The notes under the pieces were generated by a model. The model saw only the letters and a program-made list of their open reading frames with translations. It did not search any database and had not been told where the DNA came from. From a virus: a stretch of DNA of 5,064 bases. The stretch spans positions 1 to 5,064 of the IMG/VR virus record IMGVR_UViG_3300022693_003385; one strand, 5' to 3'. How positions within the stretch are numbered: the first letter of the stretch is position 1; each line of letters starts with the position of its first letter. This document shows positions 1-5,064 of this stretch, one piece after another. The position numbers were made by a program, and so were the translations under genes.

Positions 1-144
1 CGGGATTAGGAGATTCCGAGCCAATTAATCCGATCCAAATGGCTTTCGCGCAATTGATCGGAAATATGGCTCAACAAAAACAAGTTATTATTCCTCCTAA
101 AATAATTGAAAGAGACCAAAAAGGATTATTTGTTTCAAAAGACG
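1..144. repeat. Terminal direct repeat, copy 1, identical to 4921..5064. This is the overlap signature of a circular or concatemeric 4,920-bp unit.
   Basis: I compared all 144 bases with 4921..5064 by eye and found no mismatch. The repeat is flush with both window ends and lies inside an ORF. Confidence 0.95.
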
Positions 145-149
145 AATAA
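1..149 (+). CDS. 3' end of the wrap-around ORF that starts at 4767. It is a duplicate of 4921..5064 plus the last 5 nt, gaa TAA.
   Basis: The frame continues from 4767. Codons run gga(3-5)...gac(141-143) gaa(144-146) TAA(147-149), giving ...GLGDSEPINPIQMAFAQLIGNMAQQKQVIIPPKIIERDQKGLFVSKDE*. Confidence 0.7.
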   Translation, partial: GLGDSEPINPIQMAFAQLIGNMAQQKQVIIPPKIIERDQKGLFVSKDE

Positions 150-203
150 CGGAATTTTTAGATCTTAAAAACTTCGAATTCCGGAAAAAATAAAGCTCAA
201 AAA

Positions 204-251
204 TTGCTGTTTTACGGTAAAATTTGTAAAACAATAATAAACAACTATACA
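204..251 (+). promoter_or_regulatory. Weak candidate sigma70-like promoter region for the plus-strand structural operon.
   Basis: Hand-picked hexamers are TTGTAA(224-229)-16 nt-TATACA(246-251) or TTTACG(211-216)-18 nt-TAATAA(235-240). This is the only sizeable AT-rich gap before gene 265. Gene 265 has no SD, so a very short leader is possible. Confidence 0.25.
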
Positions 252-264
252 ACCAGATGTTAGT

Positions 265-690
265 ATGGCACGTAGAAGAAAGAAAGCCTCAAGACGAAGA
301 AGCCGATCGGTTTCACTAATTAATTTAGCAGAAAGTTATGCTTATGCAGATACATTAACCTCTGGAGTTATGGGAACTACTCCATTAGGATTTATTACAG
401 GCGCGTCTGATATTGGAATGAAACGAATGCCTGATTCTGTAGGCGGTTATAACACATCTAGTATGGTAATGACAGGTACAGATCAAATATCCTTAGCAGA
501 TATTACTACGAATCCGGGTGCATCGTTTAATGCTATGCAGGCAAATCTGTCCAGCAATTATATGAGCATGTTTTACAAAGCCGCAGCCATAAATGTAAGT
601 TTTAAATTAGGTAAAAGATTACTTCGTAGACCTATTTCAAACGTAAATAGAAATATCTTTCGGCCCTTGGGAGCGGGTTTTAAATTATAA
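265..690 (+). CDS. Hypothetical protein with an arginine-rich N-terminus, possibly a nucleic-acid-binding or internal virion protein.
   Basis: 141-aa ORF with an ATG start. The first 15 residues, MARRRKKASRRRSRS, include 9 basic ones, and the C-terminus (KLGKRLLRRPISNVNRNIFRP) is also basic. It sits directly ahead of the tightly spaced operon. Confidence 0.7.
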   Translation: MARRRKKASRRRSRSVSLINLAESYAYADTLTSGVMGTTPLGFITGASDIGMKRMPDSVGGYNTSSMVMTGTDQISLADITTNPGASFNAMQANLSSNYMSMFYKAAAINVSFKLGKRLLRRPISNVNRNIFRPLGAGFKL

Positions 691-693
691 ATT

Positions 694-699
694 GGTGAT
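694..699 (+). promoter_or_regulatory. Shine-Dalgarno site GGTGAT for the gene at 704.
   Basis: GGTGAT lies 4 nt before the ATG and is complementary to the GAUCACC part of the 16S rRNA 3' tail. Confidence 0.7.
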
Positions 700-703
700 T
701 TGA

Positions 704-1390
704 ATGACTACACAAAATGTATCAGGAGTCCTAAACTGCACTAGCGGTTTTAAAATTCCATTAAACGCAACAATCACTGACGGTACAGAAGCAAGTCTAA
801 CTACAGATACTGCTTTCACTGTAACGGCTCAAAATATTGGCGACTTTGCTAATGGTCAAACTGTAACTTCTGGATTAGTTACTGCAGGAGCAAACATATC
901 ATACGCATACATACTAAGGAAAGGATTGATCCTTTCTTTAATACCATTTGCAGTTAAGGGAGTTGCATGTGGAACTCCTTCTCTTGCTCGCCCTGTGACT
1001 TTAATGGCTGGAGATCAACTCCGAGTTTTCACTATGGTTGCTGCTGGCAGAAATGCGTCTCTAGCGGTAGTGACTAACCAAGGTGTTCCTCGTATCTTCA
1101 TCGGTGCAAGTGTAGCGGCAGGTGCGGGAACTTTCCAACTTGTAGACCTCCAGACTTCGAATTCCATAGGAGAAACTCTCCAGGGCCAAGTTGTTCAGAT
1201 GGCACAATTTACTTCAGTAGATCAAGCATTAATTACAAGCGTGGCAGGTGGCGCACAAGTAACTATGAGTAATGGAAATTTGAGCGGAAGTATTCCTGCA
1301 ACTGATCCAATTGAAACACAACCTTACATGAAGCCTTGCTCAATTCCAGTTCAATTAAATTTCACAGCACAATACATAACTTCTGCTTAA
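704..1390 (+). CDS. Hypothetical structural protein, the candidate major capsid protein. No family is assigned.
   Basis: 228-aa ORF with a strong SD. It is rich in T/V/A/G/S, has few charged residues, and has no His or Trp. It has a beta-strand-like alternating pattern and sits between the Arg-rich protein and the fibre gene. Confidence 0.85.
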   Translation: MTTQNVSGVLNCTSGFKIPLNATITDGTEASLTTDTAFTVTAQNIGDFANGQTVTSGLVTAGANISYAYILRKGLILSLIPFAVKGVACGTPSLARPVTLMAGDQLRVFTMVAAGRNASLAVVTNQGVPRIFIGASVAAGAGTFQLVDLQTSNSIGETLQGQVVQMAQFTSVDQALITSVAGGAQVTMSNGNLSGSIPATDPIETQPYMKPCSIPVQLNFTAQYITSA

Positions 1391-1397
1391 GGTGATC
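1391..1397 (+). promoter_or_regulatory. Shine-Dalgarno site GGTGATC for the small gene at 1401.
   Basis: The sequence reads TAAGGTGATCtaaATG. The 7-nt complement to the 16S tail ends 3 nt before the ATG, with the core GGTGAT 4 nt before it. Confidence 0.65.
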
Positions 1398-1400
1398 TAA

Positions 1401-1562
1401 ATGGCTAAGATTACAAAGGCACAACAAAAAAGATTGATTAAGTCTATTGATTCAAAAGCAGTCAAATTGGCCTTTAATACTTTTAACCCTAGGATTTTAA
1501 CTCCACAAGATTACATGGCGATCGAGAAGATTCTGGCAAGAGCGATGAACCGAATAAAGTGA
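1401..1562 (+). CDS. Small basic hypothetical protein of 53 aa, absent from the supplied ORF track.
   Basis: Hand translation gives MAKITKAQQKRLIKSIDSKAVKLAFNTFNPRILTPQDYMAIEKILARAMNRIK*. It has a perfect SD and exactly fills the gap between 1390 and 1569 in the operon. Confidence 0.6.
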   Translation: MAKITKAQQKRLIKSIDSKAVKLAFNTFNPRILTPQDYMAIEKILARAMNRIK

Positions 1563-1563
1563 T
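1559..1563 (+). promoter_or_regulatory. Partial Shine-Dalgarno site (a)GTGAT for the gene at 1569.
   Basis: GTGAT lies 5 nt before the ATG, with the same motif register as the neighbouring genes. Confidence 0.4.
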
Positions 1564-1568
1564 ATGAA

Positions 1569-1787
1569 ATGCCCCTCCCTAATGCTGAAAGACGTAGCAA
1601 TAGAATTTACCCTATCATTAAGGGCAAGACGCTTGAAGAGATTGCTTCTGGTGAGAATCCTACAATTGATAATATCGGCAAACCGATCGATATAATGCTA
1701 TTGAATGAAGATGAACTAAGAAGATTAGTATTAATTAAACTCGCAATTACTGCCTGCAAGGCCGATTGGGATGGATTTTTGAGTTAG
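1569..1787 (+). CDS. Stand-alone paralogue of the N-terminal (putative virion-anchor) domain of the downstream fibre protein.
   Basis: The 72-aa ORF aligns by hand with residues 1-69 of the 460-aa protein over shared blocks MPLP.A...S.RIY...K...LE, NEDE.RRLVL..LA..A...DW.GFL. About 29 positions are identical. The ORF ends exactly where the fibre's Gly linker begins. Confidence 0.75.
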   Translation: MPLPNAERRSNRIYPIIKGKTLEEIASGENPTIDNIGKPIDIMLLNEDELRRLVLIKLAITACKADWDGFLS

Positions 1788-1792
1788 GAGAT
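1786..1792 (+). promoter_or_regulatory. Shine-Dalgarno site AGGAGAT for the fibre gene at 1798.
   Basis: AGGAGAT ends 5 nt before the ATG. Confidence 0.65.
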
Positions 1793-1797
1793 GAAAT

Positions 1798-3180
1798 ATG
1801 CCACTACCAGACGCACCAGATTACTCAAAAAGAATCTATGAACTATTGAAAGAGACCGATCTGGAGAACTTATCGTATAGTCAATTCAAGGGAGTTGCAG
1901 AAAAAATCTTTATTGAGCCTGAAAATGAAGACGAAATGCGTCGTTTAGTATTAGTTCAACTTGCTAGAATGGCCGTACGTGGTGACTGGAACGGATTTTT
2001 AACGGGTGGAGGAGGATCAGGAGCGCCAACTGACGCAGAATATGTAGTAATGGCACTCAATGGTACTCTAACTAACGAAAGAAAACTTACAGCAGGGGCT
2101 AACATAACTATTACAGATGGCGGAGCAGGTGGTAATGTAACCATTGCAGCATCTGGAGGTGCTGTATCATTTCCTCTTGAAGGATCGTTAGGTTCTGTAT
2201 CTGCTCCTACTTATTCATTTACGGGTGATACTAATACTGGAATGTATTCTCCTGCAGCCGATCAACTCGGTTTTACTGTTGGAGGTAATGAAAGACTAGG
2301 TGTAGCAAACAACAAAGTCACTGGAATTGCATTTCAAACATCAGGAACCAATACAGCAGCGGCTCCCGACTTTTCTTTTACTGCTGATGCAGATACTGGA
2401 ATCTTCAAAGCGGCCGCAAATCAAATAGGATTTTCTGCGGGTGGATCAGAGAAATTTAGAATGGCAGACGCAGGACAATTAGGAATTGGTGGGGCAAATT
2501 ATGGAACTGCAGGACAAGTATTGACATCTGCAGGAGCAACAAGTCCTCCTACCTGGTCCACTGCTGCAGGAGGAGGTAACGAATTTAACGCGGAATTAGT
2601 TGGTGTAGAATTAGACCAATCAGGTACTGGATATGCTGCGTTTGATATTTTGAGTTTACCACCATACGGCGCTAGTCGTTACAATACTGGATCAATAGAT
2701 ACTAAACAATATTTTTACCCTTTTATTGCTCCAGCATCTGGAGATATTTCAGAAATAATAATGAATTTTACTTCTGCATCATCTGGAGCGACTAATGTCT
2801 ACTATGGATTCTATAGAGATAATAACGGAGTGCCTTCAACTCTTTTGGGTTATGCTACTGCAGACGGAACTTCAACAGGTGAACAAAGTATTACTTCGTT
2901 TAGTTCTACAGTTACTCTGACTAGAGGAACTCAATTCTGGTTATCTCAAAATAAATCGACTACAGATTCTATTACTCAAAGAGCAATCGATAACATTTAC
3001 AGAGCAAGGATCGCGCCTTACGAATCATTCCCATCAACTACTAACGGTTACGGAACTTCATTGACTACTAATTCAAGTGTTTCTGCTGTTCCAAGTGATA
3101 TTACTGCAGAAGATTTAGAACCCGGCATATTTTTCTCAGGTTTAGGTGCTTGTCCTCATATTAGTATTAAAATTCTCTAG
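1798..3180 (+). CDS. Tail-fibre/spike-like host-recognition protein.
   Basis: 460-aa ORF with a modular layout:
- N-terminal helical domain, aa 1-68;
- TGGGGSG linker;
- the segment DAEYVVMALNGTLTNERKLTAGANITITDGGAGGNVTIAA;
- two copies of a roughly 35-aa repeat, AP.(Y/F)SFT.D.(N/D)TG(M/I)(Y/F)..AA.Q(L/I)GF..GG.E;
- a GQVLTSAGATSPPTW motif;
- a roughly 200-aa C-terminal domain rich in S/T/N.
From memory these motifs are typical of phage fibre proteins. I have not confirmed this by search. Confidence 0.9.
   Translation: MPLPDAPDYSKRIYELLKETDLENLSYSQFKGVAEKIFIEPENEDEMRRLVLVQLARMAVRGDWNGFLTGGGGSGAPTDAEYVVMALNGTLTNERKLTAGANITITDGGAGGNVTIAASGGAVSFPLEGSLGSVSAPTYSFTGDTNTGMYSPAADQLGFTVGGNERLGVANNKVTGIAFQTSGTNTAAAPDFSFTADADTGIFKAAANQIGFSAGGSEKFRMADAGQLGIGGANYGTAGQVLTSAGATSPPTWSTAAGGGNEFNAELVGVELDQSGTGYAAFDILSLPPYGASRYNTGSIDTKQYFYPFIAPASGDISEIIMNFTSASSGATNVYYGFYRDNNGVPSTLLGYATADGTSTGEQSITSFSSTVTLTRGTQFWLSQNKSTTDSITQRAIDNIYRARIAPYESFPSTTNGYGTSLTTNSSVSAVPSDITAEDLEPGIFFSGLGACPHISIKIL
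2200..2304 (+). repeat. Intragenic fibre repeat, unit 1 (aa 135-169).
   Basis: SAPTYSFTGDTNTGMYSPAADQLGFTVGGNERLGV aligns with unit 2 at about 16 of 35 identical positions. The units are offset by 53 aa. Confidence 0.7.
2359..2463 (+). repeat. Intragenic fibre repeat, unit 2 (aa 188-222).
   Basis: AAPDFSFTADADTGIFKAAANQIGFSAGGSEKFRM. See unit 1. Confidence 0.7.
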
Positions 3181-3185
3181 GTGAT
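3180..3185 (+). promoter_or_regulatory. Shine-Dalgarno site GGTGAT for the gene at 3189.
   Basis: The sequence reads taGGTGATtcaATG, with 3-nt spacing. The first G is the last base of the fibre stop codon. Confidence 0.7.
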
Positions 3186-3188
3186 TCA

Positions 3189-3635
3189 ATGCCTAAGCCA
3201 AAACCAGACCAAGTCGTTCGTCATGAAATAGTTCTAGGCCGATCTGAACGAGAATTAATTTCTGATGGCATTGCAGCATACCAATTTAACAGAATTACCA
3301 CTCCTTTAGTTGCATTATTTTCTGATGCTTCAGCAATGGGCTTGATTCTTGGTGGTTTGGCTACTTATTATGGATTCAAATTTGACATAATACCGGGAGC
3401 ATATAATACTGGATTGGAATTGTATAATGACTGGAAGATTCAATATGATGCATGGAGAGAAACTGCCGGAGATTTTGCAAACGATCCTATTGGAGAAATC
3501 TTAGGAATTTTAATTCCCAATATTAACTTTAATCCGGGTGGAAGAATAGACCCTGTAACTGGAATGCCTGTTCAATATCCATACGGGCCCACAACTCCTC
3601 CAAGTTATACACCCGGCACACCTAGACCCTATTGA
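3189..3635 (+). CDS. Hypothetical membrane protein with a Pro/Tyr-rich C-terminal tail.
   Basis: 148-aa ORF with a strong SD. It has one hydrophobic span, about aa 36-63 (ITTPLVALFSDASAMGLILGGLATYYGF). The C-terminus is PVQYPYGPTTPPSYTPGTPRPY. It is the last gene of the plus-strand operon. Confidence 0.8.
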   Translation: MPKPKPDQVVRHEIVLGRSERELISDGIAAYQFNRITTPLVALFSDASAMGLILGGLATYYGFKFDIIPGAYNTGLELYNDWKIQYDAWRETAGDFANDPIGEILGILIPNINFNPGGRIDPVTGMPVQYPYGPTTPPSYTPGTPRPY

Positions 3636-3644
3636 GAGTGTAAA

Positions 3645-3688
3645 GTCAATAGCGATAATTCTTCGCCATCATAGGCGAAAATATTGAC
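3645..3688. terminator. Nested inverted repeat in the convergent intergenic gap, a candidate bidirectional terminator.
   Basis: The outer arms are GTCAATA(3645-3651) and TATTGAC(3682-3688). The inner hairpin is TTCGCC(3662-3667), loop ATCATA, GGCGAA(3674-3679). It lies between the stop codons at 3635 (+) and 3703 (-). The flanking U-tracts are poor. Confidence 0.45.
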
Positions 3689-3702
3689 CTCTCGACCCCC
3701 TA

Positions 3703-4026
3703 TTAAGGCAATTTTTTCCAGAACTTAAACCTATTATCTTTGAGTGCTTTGCTCTCAGCGTTCAATTGATCTATTTGTTGATTTAACTGCCCGATCACTT
3801 CTAGCATCTTTTTTCTTTCAAAGGGTGCAATAACTACACCATGTGATGATTGAATTAGTTTACCAGTGAAACCTTCTTCATCATATTCTTTTGCCCATTT
3901 AGGTTCAGTGTAGAACCAGATGATCGCTTTAGATACATTATCTGACATTTCTCCAGCCTTCGATCTGGTTCTAATTAATTCAGATGCTTGTTTATAGAGA
4001 GTAAATGAATGTAGAATTTTACTCAT
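3703..4026 (-). CDS. Hypothetical protein of 107 aa with a coiled-coil-like C-terminal half. It is the last gene of the minus-strand cassette.
   Basis: ATG start at 4026 with the SD GGAGAT (4033-4038 on the minus strand) 6 nt upstream. The start directly abuts the stop of the upstream gene (TAG-ATG). The segment MLEVIGQLNQQIDQLNAESKALK looks heptad-like. Confidence 0.75.
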   Translation of the reverse strand: MSKILHSFTLYKQASELIRTRSKAGEMSDNVSKAIIWFYTEPKWAKEYDEEGFTGKLIQSSHGVVIAPFERKKMLEVIGQLNQQIDQLNAESKALKDNRFKFWKKLP

Positions 4027-4269
4027 CTAACAATCTCCACTTAATAGAATTTCAAAGTGCTCCATAGTTTTCTTGATCATATTTACTTTATCAAATAATG
4101 ATTCTAAAATTCTAATCTGAGTTTCATCATAACATCCTCTATGATAAATATTAGGATCGCATTCTTCATTGCATTGACATCCTTTTTCGATTTCATCCCA
4201 TTCATGATCTTTGGCTAATAATAACGCTCCACAAATGACATCCCATTCTTTCGCTCTTAATCCAATCAT
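4027..4269 (-). CDS. Small Cys/His-rich hypothetical protein of 80 aa, possibly metal-binding.
   Basis: It contains GCQCNEECDPNIYHRGC plus Cys13 and Cys80. A GAGG SD sits inside the upstream gene, and there is a 4-nt ATGA overlap with the upstream gene at 4266-4269. Confidence 0.75.
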   Translation of the reverse strand: MIGLRAKEWDVICGALLLAKDHEWDEIEKGCQCNEECDPNIYHRGCYDETQIRILESLFDKVNMIKKTMEHFEILLSGDC

Positions 4270-4454
4270 TCTTCCTCATCCCTAAATCGGCCTTGTTTAG
4301 CCAAACATACAACCATTTCAACAAATGAATGTGAACCAACTAACTCTCCACAGGTTAAACACGGATCATTAGCATCAAATCCTTGTTCTTCAAGACACAT
4401 AGCACACCCGTAGTACCCACAATTAGGACAAACAACAGTTCTTGCATCCATCAT
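4266..4454 (-). CDS. Small zinc-ribbon-like protein of 62 aa.
   Basis: It has three CxxC pairs, at C9-C12, C17-C20 and C32-C35 (CPNCGYYGCAMC...CLTC). A GAGG SD lies 7 nt upstream. Its start overlaps the stop of the 39-codon ORF (TAATG). Confidence 0.75.
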   Translation of the reverse strand: MMDARTVVCPNCGYYGCAMCLEEQGFDANDPCLTCGELVGSHSFVEMVVCLAKQGRFRDEEE

Positions 4455-4573
4455 TACCAGTCCTCACTGATCGTGTCCTTACATCGTTCACAAATTCCCC
4501 ATGTATGTCTCTTTTCGTCTTGATAGCATTTCCTTATTCTGCAAAGGCAGCATTTGTCGTCGTATTCACCCAT
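4454..4573 (-). CDS. Mini zinc-ribbon-like protein of 39 aa, absent from the ORF track. It is the first gene of the minus-strand cassette.
   Basis: Hand translation of the reverse complement gives MGEYDDKCCLCRIRKCYQDEKRHTWGICERCKDTISEDW*. It has two CxxC pairs, at C8-C11 and C28-C31. A GAGG SD (4580-4583) lies 6 nt before the ATG. Its stop TAA shares one base with the next ATG. Confidence 0.55.
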   Translation of the reverse strand: MGEYDDKCCLCRIRKCYQDEKRHTWGICERCKDTISEDW

Positions 4574-4601
4574 ATTATGCCTCACGACCTAAAATCAATA
4601 T

Positions 4602-4629
4602 ATAATATCACCGGCAGAATGCCGATCAA
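4602..4629 (-). promoter_or_regulatory. Candidate promoter of the minus-strand cassette.
   Basis: On the minus strand it reads TTGATC(4629-4624), a 16-nt spacer, then an extended -10, TGaTATTAT (4610-4602). It is about 30 nt upstream of the ATG at 4573. The same ATATTATATAT stretch could also be read as an archaeal TATA box. Confidence 0.45.
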
Positions 4630-4673
4630 ATCTTTTGATTCGATTAAAATCGTTTTACGCGATTGCATATCGC
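4612..4673. repeat. Cluster of four contiguous short inverted repeats, candidate operator or origin structures.
   Basis: The four repeats are:
- CGGCA-gaa-TGCCG (4612-4624);
- ATCAAA-tct-TTTGAT (4625-4639);
- CGATT-aa-AATCG (4641-4652);
- GCGAT-tgcat-ATCGC (4659-4673).
The region is also dense in GATT/AATC tetramers. Confidence 0.5.
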
Positions 4674-4716
4674 CTGAAAGGTATCCTTTCGACTCATGAT
4701 TAAGATAAAAAGATTA

Positions 4717-4735
4717 GGGTGGGGTTCGGGGAGGG
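4717..4735 (+). other. G-quadruplex-capable motif GGGTGGGGTTCGGGGAGGG.
   Basis: There are four runs of at least 3 G separated by loops of 1, 3 and 1 nt. It sits on the plus strand of an AT-rich intergenic region, 32 nt upstream of the ATG at 4767. Confidence 0.6.
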
Positions 4736-4766
4736 TATTAAGAACCGATCGGGCTACGATGGGGAT

Positions 4767-5064
4767 ATGATGGAGAGCCTCTATATTATAGGAGTCATAA
4801 TCTTAGGTTTTGGGGTTATGGCTAAACTTTTACATGATCTTGCAAACCAAATAGACGAAGGATTAATAGAATTGGACGAAAAATTAGCATTAGCGATACA
4901 ATCAGTAGTTGAAAAAATACCGGGATTAGGAGATTCCGAGCCAATTAATCCGATCCAAATGGCTTTCGCGCAATTGATCGGAAATATGGCTCAACAAAAA
5001 CAAGTTATTATTCCTCCTAAAATAATTGAAAGAGACCAAAAAGGATTATTTGTTTCAAAAGACG
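4767..5064 (+). CDS. Small protein with an N-terminal membrane anchor. It is 100 aa in the circularised unit; the ORF runs off the window end and finishes at 147-149.
   Basis: Hand translation gives MMESLYIIGVIILGFGVMAKLLHDLANQIDEGLIELDEKLALAIQSVVEKIPGLGDSEPINPIQMAFAQLIGNMAQQKQVIIPPKIIERDQKGLFVSKD(E*). Residues about 5-22 are hydrophobic. The start is ATG 4767 or ATG 4770, the latter with GGGGAT 3 nt upstream. It is absent from the ORF track because it is truncated by the window edge. Confidence 0.7.
   Translation, partial: MMESLYIIGVIILGFGVMAKLLHDLANQIDEGLIELDEKLALAIQSVVEKIPGLGDSEPINPIQMAFAQLIGNMAQQKQVIIPPKIIERDQKGLFVSKD
4921..5064. repeat. Terminal direct repeat, copy 2, identical to 1..144.
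   Basis: Same exact 144-nt match. The window stops exactly where the identity would otherwise continue. Confidence 0.95.

Follow-up and report, generated by a model that had tools for sequence, protein, structure and literature searches.

A 4,920-bp circular genome of the Charybdis element family with candidate particle proteins, an exchangeable fibre and a probable archaeal host

Charybdis elements are circular genomes of about 4.6 kb (3.7–5.2 kb), probably of double-stranded DNA (dsDNA), that have been recovered from marine samples only (Kirchberger and Luque, 2025; bioRxiv 10.1101/2025.08.03.668216). Their genes lie in two opposed modules, the structural one headed by gp1-gp2-gp3, and larger contigs of the family are concatemers. 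Gp3 has about 230 amino acids (aa) in a two-domain 'double Greek-key' with no clear structural relative, its members being at least about 30% identical; in basal clades it is split and encoded by two genes. The gp5 'protrusion' combines a conserved N-terminal three-helix knob with a variable C-terminal part. No hallmark gene for replication or packaging of a virus, plasmid or transposon is carried, and the elements have no matches in IMG/PR (Kirchberger and Luque, 2025). The stretch of DNA analysed here, positions 1 to 5,064 of the IMG/VR virus record IMGVR_UViG_3300022693_003385 (the window, 5,064 nucleotides), is almost certainly one complete genome of this family, from its group with long-fibre 'Type II protrusions'.

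The assignment is made because of the match of its Gp3 to members listed in the preprint, the genome size, the opposed modules, the gp1-gp3 trio, the modular gp5 and the lack of replication genes. Gp3 is 91–93% identical to the proteins of L017 (IMGVR_UViG_3300017782_005554) and L003 (IMGVR_UViG_3300048442_000827); L017, at 91%, is the preprint's example of Type II protrusions, and L003 is included in its Table S2 (Kirchberger and Luque, 2025). Products of 100, 141, 228, 460 and 148 aa correspond to gp1, gp2, gp3, gp5 and gp6, respectively, and a 72-aa product occupies the gp4 position. The original prediction, made from the letters of the window alone, had presented the lineage as undescribed. 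It belongs to an already known family, its discovery having been pre-empted by the 2025 preprint. Relatives had been deposited earlier in GenBank as 'Circular genetic element sp.', records of the same genome kind that are attributed to Tisza et al. (2020) (Kirchberger and Luque, 2025) and that include a homologue of the element's 107-aa protein (P0160, 46%) and one of its fibre (P0340, 48%, named 'tail fiber protein'). Marine sources of relatives include Southern California Bight seawater for L003, and Tara and Red Sea samples for other homologues.

The ends of the window are identical over 144 nucleotides (nt; bases 1–144 = 4921–5064), an exact direct repeat that is redundancy from linearising a circular or concatemeric genome, and the closed unit has 4,920 bp and a GC content of 38.7%. 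The open reading frame (ORF) of gp1 is complete only on the joined molecule, because its ATG lies at 4767 and its stop at base 149 of the next unit. Overlap, unit length and the ORF cut by the junction, all reported in the original prediction, were confirmed on the sequence, and the circularity proposed there is supported by the relatives. Gp3 homologues are found in IMG/VR on 44 contigs (75–94% identity), each of 4.2–5.9 kb; exact end overlaps occur in 30 of these, with breakpoints scattered round the gene map and units of 4.4–5.0 kb. A collection of 5.8 billion proteins contains 190 Gp3 homologues, nearly all on contigs of about 5 kb or shorter. Apart from L052, described below, the longer contigs inspected that have core genes (L045–L047, L050, L053, L056–L058; 7–15.7 kb) are concatemers, in most cases head-to-tail and in one case with inverted copies. 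None of these contigs carries the element's gene block as part of a larger phage genome, embedding in a tailed phage being the finding that the original prediction had named as speaking against it. The whole unit gave zero nucleotide matches in 50,697 phage and 72,556 plasmid (PLSDB) records, Gp3 gave nothing by tblastn against the phage records, and the window has no match in Rfam.

In certain concatemers, among them L045 (15 kb) and L047 (13.4 kb), copies are inverted, or the units are unequal in an accessory gene (methylase present or absent). Such contigs point to amplification or to chimeric assembly from mixed strains more than to one native multimer.

Eleven ORFs occupy 91.4% of the closed unit and fall into two opposed modules, with seven genes on the plus strand (products of 100, 141, 228, 53, 72, 460 and 148 aa, in order) and four on the minus strand (107, 80, 62 and 39 aa). 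Shine-Dalgarno (SD) motifs of the GGTGAT/GGAG type precede nine of them, the exceptions being gp1 and gp2. The tight packing, the two modules and the nearly universal SD sites agree with the original prediction, as does the lack of a Rep, a Walker A protein or a large enzyme. Motif scans detected neither Walker A nor HUH-like (HxH/HxQ) motifs in any ORF, and His is absent from the 228-aa Gp3 and the 141-aa gp2. In Pfam and PHROGs, searched with the ten main proteins (all except that of 39/43 aa), no replication or packaging family was matched, the sole matches being tail-fibre repeats in the 460-aa gp5. The largest protein other than the fibre has 228 aa, and no methyltransferase is encoded in this genome.

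The reading that we favour, with a probability of about one half, is that of an element that makes a small, membrane-associated, tail-less particle of its own and leaves replication to a host replisome recruited at the control region between its two modules. In such a particle the shell would consist of Gp3, the DNA inside would be bound by the Arg-rich gp2, and a membrane would hold gp1 and gp6. The 72-aa gp4 and the homologous anchor of gp5 may together make up the base by which a receptor-binding fibre is attached. Because no polymerase, initiator or packaging ATPase is encoded, copying of the circle, probably of dsDNA, would fall to the host replisome; its recruitment is proposed to take place at the control region, which is rich in hairpins and G, possibly via the 107-aa protein of the minus strand. 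We infer an own particle from the fixed unit size (4.4–5.0 kb in 30 circular relatives), the conservation and fold of Gp3, the Arg run of gp2 and the duplication of gp4. Charybdis elements were absent from the density fraction of tailed viruses and enriched in that of small tail-less viruses and vesicles (Kirchberger and Luque, 2025).

Gp3 is encoded by the most conserved gene among the relatives. Its AlphaFold2 model is all-beta and consists of two halves or domains (predicted local distance difference test, pLDDT, 90; predicted template modelling score, pTM, 0.88), in line with the beta-looking 228-aa protein noted from the sequence earlier. In profile searches full-length matches are obtained only within the Charybdis family. 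Capsomer-like Gp3 trimers are predicted by the authors of the preprint, whose structural tree puts Gp3 outside the double jelly-roll group (Kirchberger and Luque, 2025). The sole match of the model in BFVD is A0A345N4I3, a half-size family member of 103 aa. Many homologues in the sequence library (P0174, P0192, P0202, P0208 and others; 95–120 aa) likewise span only one half of Gp3. Such half-length matches, including A0A345N4I3, are consistent with the kind expected from the split Gp3 of basal clades.

A relation of Gp3 to WD40/STAND proteins was considered and rejected. Profile positions 133–180 (window about 1100–1245) repeatedly but weakly match every blade of long WD40/STAND proteins (E-values of 4e-12 to 4e-4). 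The matches are confined to a stretch of about 50 residues containing 'DLQT..IG.TLQG' and were judged to be motif resemblance, Gp3 being a predicted beta-sandwich and the WD40 domain a propeller.

The other small structural-module proteins are also widely kept. Homologues of gp1, gp2 and gp6 occur in all 44 close relatives, and all of gp1 to gp6 have homologues in a distant clade with about 52% Gp3 identity. The gp2 protein contains 20 Lys and Arg against 6 Asp and Glu; its N-terminal Arg run is retained across clades, for instance in L052, a contig discussed below, and it has no family match in Pfam or PHROGs. A hydrophobic helix lies at residues 4–22 of gp1 (Kyte-Doolittle hydrophobicity 2.15). 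With the helix of gp6 at residues 40–58, these proteins account for the Arg-rich N-terminus and the two small membrane proteins of the original prediction.

The gp5 fibre is modular. Residues of about 96–244 match tail-fibre repeat families in Pfam and PHROGs (phrog_28766, tail fibre, 7.9e-14), which bears out the fibre-like protein noted before, and in comparison with fibres of cultured phages residues of about 99–278 alone match. A sequence search of the PDB returned nothing but chance antibody matches. The protein was detected in 43 of the 44 relatives, the remaining contig being incomplete. Its first 74–130 residues are 80–90% identical among them, the remainder is swapped, and lengths range from 186 to 489 aa. 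Residues 1–69 of gp5 are 43% identical to gp4 over 72 aa (E 1e-18), and the similarity is visible at the DNA level as the repeat D4 (1569–1787 vs 1798–2004). Present in all 44 relatives at 77–94% identity and in the distant clade, gp4 is a core gene; it is a stand-alone duplicate of the fibre anchor.

The shaft and tip of the fibre are shared with two metagenomic contigs from outside the Charybdis family, L054 (15,117 nt; fibre at 9776–11917) and L055 (12,159 nt; fibre at 9671–11392). The similar part corresponds to window 2164–3177. Identity to the fibre of L055 is 66% over gp5 residues 123–459, and identity to that of L054 is 55% over residues 186–458; the N-terminal anchor of gp5 is unrelated to the anchors of these fibres. 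Both contigs encode DNA methylases, the fibre with a fibre chaperone (PF16778), a protein-primed family-B polymerase (PolB; PF03175, 1.3e-41), a Walker-A ATPase of 226–227 aa and an unannotated beta-rich protein of 321–327 aa. Among cultured viruses, Methanosarcina spherical virus has the PolB nearest to that of L054 (28% identity, E 1e-27), with tectiviruses further away. For the 321-aa capsid candidate of L054, searches of the PDB, phage records and IMG/VR were all empty. No other gene is shared between these contigs and the element, and they have none of its control-region motifs. Because shaft and tip are 55–66% identical, the element and viruses of the L054/L055 type probably share a host, and the similarity is taken to mean that the two virus types have exchanged a receptor-binding module. 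Tail-less viruses of that host are one possible identity of the two contigs, and a candidate helper is another. Homologues that cover the anchor are found only on contigs of Charybdis size or on Charybdis concatemers; since the anchor is confined to the family while shaft and tip are shared with fibres of a different N-terminus, it would dock on a Charybdis-specific structure.

In the minus-strand module, the 107-aa protein alone is present in all 44 relatives, and homologues occur in part of the distant clade. Its N-terminus (MxKILxSFTL) and C-terminus (NRFKFWKK) are invariant. The AlphaFold2 model (pLDDT 72) contains three short helices, a beta-hairpin and a long helix, a topology that at this pLDDT of only 72 resembles a winged helix more than a ribbon-helix-helix. 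That the protein binds DNA is a guess.

The control region is kept in all 31 circular relatives, and its conservation is about that of most coding sequence. Its hairpin part (4612–4690) has a DNA folding energy of -17.7 kcal/mol (z = -4.18), and none of 200 shuffled sequences was equally stable; in the hairpin at 4676–4690, compensatory (covarying) changes are seen among relatives. The G-tract, just upstream of the promoter-like box of gp1, is kept in the clade of the window and missing from the distant clade. The heads of the transcription units (gp1, gp2 and the 39-aa gene) each have an A/T box that ends 24–25 nt upstream of the ATG; gp1 and gp2 have no SD motif, and the internal genes have one. 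This pattern of A/T boxes and missing SD motifs fits archaeal leaderless operons and is suggestive of them.

The host is probably a marine archaeon of the Poseidoniales. Integrated copies (24) of one Charybdis clade are known from metagenome-assembled genomes (MAGs) of Poseidoniales, or Marine Group II (Kirchberger and Luque, 2025). In L052 (LUSA01000020.1, from the Marine Group II MAG REDSEA-S43_B8 of the Red Sea), rtcB and an archaeal-type alaS (TIGR03683, 918 bits) are followed directly by gp1-gp4, and at the junction near 4378 element homology begins exactly at the TTAAGAACCG box. A further homologue, P0074, is binned to Poseidoniales. Together with the integrated copies, L052 makes an archaeal host the best-supported reading for the family and a probable one for the clade of the window. 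Bacterial phages, with which the original prediction compared the element, are probably a mistaken frame, since all the host evidence available for the family points to Poseidoniales archaea.

Several observations weigh against the particle, the replication route and the host proposed here. A Foldseek search with the Gp3 model retrieved no PDB analogue and no capsid protein (best E 0.026, TM-score at most 0.23), and no particle has been seen. Known DNA viruses with an icosahedral, membrane-containing particle carry a packaging ATPase, which the element lacks. The palindromes and the G-tract of the control region are confined to the clade, and only the TTAAGAACCG box extends to the distant one. 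The 107-aa protein gave no significant match in sequence, PDB-profile or Foldseek searches (E at least 1.6). A ribbon-helix-helix fold, considered for it from the pattern KILHSFTL-helix-G.MS-helix, was rejected, since hhalign gave 1% probability against Arc, Mnt and CopG, a weak probe with three sequences. A bacterial reading of the minus-strand promoter is possible because a sigma-70-like site overlaps the TATA-like box and the SD-like GTGAGG precedes the first minus-strand gene. Bacterial promoters in general were rejected, a scan for sigma-70 sites showing no enrichment, with 15 seen and 15.5 expected. A scan of species-representative genomes yielded three contigs with Gp3, one being L052 and the other two consisting of the element only and binned in unrelated bacterial MAGs; the bins of these two are spurious, and spurious binning of Charybdis contigs is reported by the authors of the preprint as well (Kirchberger and Luque, 2025). 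Finally, L052 may be a chimeric misassembly rather than a case of integration in the control region, because alaS is cut at the junction (model positions 3–793 of 902).

The original prediction had offered two alternatives, a minimal virus replicated by its host and a satellite or plasmid. Both are retained, and the preprint leaves the virus, satellite and vesicle-plasmid natures undecided in the same way (Kirchberger and Luque, 2025). The part that did not stand is the recruitment of the replication machinery by tiny zinc-finger proteins: it fails because the genes concerned are accessory, being found in none (62 aa), 6 (80 aa) and 35 (43 aa) of the 44 relatives. A bolder form of the favoured reading is that Charybdis elements are autonomous viruses whose capsid has the fold of no known virus, that they form a new realm-level lineage with abundant marine archaea as hosts, that their circles of about 5 kb are copied wholly by the host replisome, which the 107-aa protein would recruit at the control region, and that they trade receptor-binding fibres with unrelated PolB-encoding tail-less viruses of the same host. 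This form is tentative and would be expected to hold in rather fewer than half of such cases.

Among the rival explanations, the best placed is a satellite that supplies its own fibre and structural or membrane proteins and takes the capsid, packaging and/or replication from a helper, either a tailed magrovirus or a virus of the L054/L055 type. We consider it unlikely. In its favour, the element has no replication or packaging gene, concatemers exist, and the part of the fibre beyond the anchor is 55–66% identical to that of 12–15 kb contigs in which a protein-primed PolB, a fibre chaperone and a Walker-A ATPase are encoded. Helpers and their known satellites have genes in common, whereas the other proteins of the element have no homologue in L054/L055 or in cultured phages, and its fibre anchor is not of the helper type. 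A protein-primed polymerase, moreover, replicates linear genomes and not circles. The helper role of L054/L055 is weak in particular because only shaft and tip are shared, with neither the control-region motifs nor the anchor. The unit size is tightly fixed, and the absence from the tailed-virus fraction, described above, also argues against the satellite, an option that is nevertheless taken seriously in the preprint (Kirchberger and Luque, 2025).

Less probable still is a vesicle-borne, plasmid-like element comparable to pR1SE or pleolipovirus-like agents, in which the DNA would travel in host-derived vesicles decorated by gp1, gp6 and the fibre, there would be no protein shell, and Gp3 would have another role. 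Two membrane proteins, a Gp3 without a capsid-fold match and the missing packaging ATPase would suit such an element, and the density fraction in which Charybdis elements are enriched also holds extracellular vesicles; some pleolipoviruses, too, have no recognisable replication protein (cited in Kirchberger and Luque, 2025). Against it stand the very narrow range of genome sizes, unlike that of plasmids or vesicle cargo, and the lack of a Rep or Mob gene, of a PLSDB match and, according to the preprint, of an IMG/PR match. Gp3 is, besides, the most conserved protein and the one for which capsomer-like trimers have been predicted. An assembly artefact or a piece of a larger genome, such as a repeat-collapsed tailed phage or a chromosome, is extremely improbable: the fibre repeats resemble those of tailed phages, 58% of Charybdis contigs are labelled Caudoviricetes in IMG/VR (Kirchberger and Luque, 2025) and L052 adjoins cellular genes, but the 4.4–5.0 kb unit closes, at differing breakpoints, in dozens of assemblies made independently from different samples, every longer core-gene contig inspected except L052 is a concatemer, and phage and plasmid records hold no nucleotide match.

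The remaining features of the window are collected in Table 1. The 53-aa protein has tblastn matches in 31 of the 44 relatives (29–60% identity) and 49-aa counterparts in the distant clade. The 62-aa protein has zinc-finger matches in Pfam below threshold only, and its absence from the 44 relatives makes it private to this element among them. In other Charybdis genomes, for example L048 and L050, methyltransferases occupy the position of the 80-aa and 62-aa genes (4027–4454). The spacer between gp1 and gp2 is about 30 nt long in most relatives and in this element consists mostly of a specific insertion, with an identity of 0.11–0.27 to the relatives over 121–240. It contains a 34-nt near-palindrome centred on GATC (150–183) and an A/T-rich box (233–241) that ends 24 nt before the gp2 ATG. 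Judged from these motifs, the insertion may be an added terminator with an internal promoter. The convergent spacer, with its hairpin, is a probable transcription stop region.

Table 1. Features of the 5,064-nt window, in order of position on the closed unit; minus-strand genes are given in the direction of reading.
Feature	Position	Strand	Length	Description
Terminal overlap	1-144 (= 4921-5064)	no strand	144 nt	Exact direct repeat
gp1	4767-5064, through the junction to base 149 (3' end also at 1-149)	+	100 aa	N-terminal transmembrane helix
gp1-gp2 spacer	150-264	no strand	115 nt	Mostly insertion specific to this element
gp2	265-690	+	141 aa	Arg-rich N-terminus MARRRKKASRRRSRS; candidate internal DNA-binding or core protein
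gp3	704-1390	+	228 aa	Charybdis hallmark protein; candidate shell protein
Small basic protein	1401-1562	+	53 aa	Weakly conserved
gp4	1569-1787	+	72 aa	Free-standing paralogue of the gp5 N-terminal anchor ('knob')
gp5	1798-3180	+	460 aa	Fibre/'protrusion': N-terminal anchor about 1-74/130, repeat shaft about 96-280, exchangeable C-terminal tip
gp6	3189-3635	+	148 aa	Hydrophobic helix at residues 40-58; Pro-rich C-terminus
Convergent spacer	3636-3702	no strand		Hairpin TTCGCC-N6-GGCGAA at 3662-3679
107-aa protein	4026-3703	-	107 aa	Candidate DNA-binding regulator or replication adaptor
80-aa protein	4269-4027	-	80 aa	Cys-rich accessory protein
62-aa protein	4454-4266	-	62 aa	Accessory protein with CxxC pairs, Zn-ribbon-like
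Small Cys-rich protein	4573-4454	-	39 aa from ATG 4573 (43 aa from GTG 4585)	First gene of the minus module
Control region	4574-4766	no strand	193 nt	Divergent, non-coding; candidate promoters and origin or regulator-binding sites
TATA-like box	4598-4608			In control region
Five consecutive inverted repeats	4612-4624, 4625-4639, 4641-4652, 4659-4673, 4676-4690			In control region
G-tract	4717-4735	+		Four G runs (GGG T GGGG TTC GGGG A GGG); fits G-quadruplex motif
Box TATTAAGAACCG	4736-4747			In control region; also kept in distant clade

The Charybdis family is genuine and abundant, and an explanation of it is still lacking. If Gp3 is its capsid protein, the elements would rank with the smallest prokaryotic DNA viruses, would use a shell fold that is new and would do without a replication gene; their hosts would be among the commonest archaeal groups of the ocean. 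The window adds four features that were not found described in the preprint: the duplicate of the fibre anchor in gp4, the fibre shaft and tip shared with L054/L055, the conservation of the 107-aa protein within the 'accessory' module, and the conserved control region with its palindromes. The palindromes are a candidate origin or operator, and the 107-aa protein is a candidate binder of the control region. It is proposed that gp4 is a candidate docking piece onto Gp3, and that the shared fibre tip connects the element with a second type of virus infecting its host, a candidate helper.

Compared with known systems, the element differs from plasmids in having no Rep, mobilisation or partition genes (Pfam) and no nucleotide match in PLSDB. 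With Caudoviricetes only the fibre repeats match; the HK97-fold capsid, terminase and portal of tailed phages are unmatched in Pfam, PHROGs and phage records. Phage satellites (P4-like, PICI/cfPICI, PLE, PICMI) resemble it in their small size, in the missing replication and packaging functions and in a structural gene related to that of a larger virus. Unlike them, the element has no integrase, primase or Rep, small terminase or capsid-redirecting homologue and measures about 5 kb against at least 10 kb; only the fibre shaft and tip are common to the candidate helper, and according to the preprint such elements are absent from the tailed-virus fraction. Microviridae, Inoviridae and Plectroviridae share its genome size class and circular topology. 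It lacks the HUH Rep and the F-type capsid protein of about 430–550 aa of Microviridae and the rolling-circle initiator and Zot-type Walker A ATPase of Inoviridae and Plectroviridae, and in contrast to all three it probably has dsDNA and an archaeal host.

APBV1 of the Clavaviridae is an archaeal virus with a circular dsDNA genome of about 5.3 kb that is apparently replicated wholly by its host. The element is similar to APBV1 and to some Pleolipoviridae in its small circular genome and seeming reliance on host replication. No relation in sequence or predicted fold was found, and the virions of these viruses are alpha-helical or membrane-only, whereas the candidate shell of the element is a beta-sandwich accompanied by fibres. 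Tail-less Varidnaviria (Corticoviridae PM2, Autolykiviridae, Tectiviridae and Finnlakeviridae FLiP) are similar in having a small genome, small membrane proteins, a shell protein with two beta-domains, for which Gp3 is the candidate counterpart, and vertex fibres or spikes with exchangeable tips. Further likenesses are the density fraction, as given in the preprint, and the fibre shaft and tip shared with similar-looking PolB/ATPase contigs. In contrast to those viruses, the element has no double jelly-roll match, FtsK/HerA-type ATPase, polymerase or Rep, and its genome is half the size of their smallest members.

The closest likeness is to Charybdis elements themselves. The 'Circular genetic element sp.' records differ in their deposition, without classification or interpretation. 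From other Charybdis genomes the element shows no family-defining difference; it has no methyltransferase, three small Cys-rich accessory genes, two of them rare or private, and a gp1-gp2 spacer of 115 nt. It shares with them the absence of replication, packaging and plasmid hallmark genes, a Gp3 of about 230 aa that is modelled as two beta domains, a circle within 3.7–5.2 kb, a gp1-gp6 module opposed to an accessory module, and a gp5 that joins a conserved N-terminus to an exchangeable tip.

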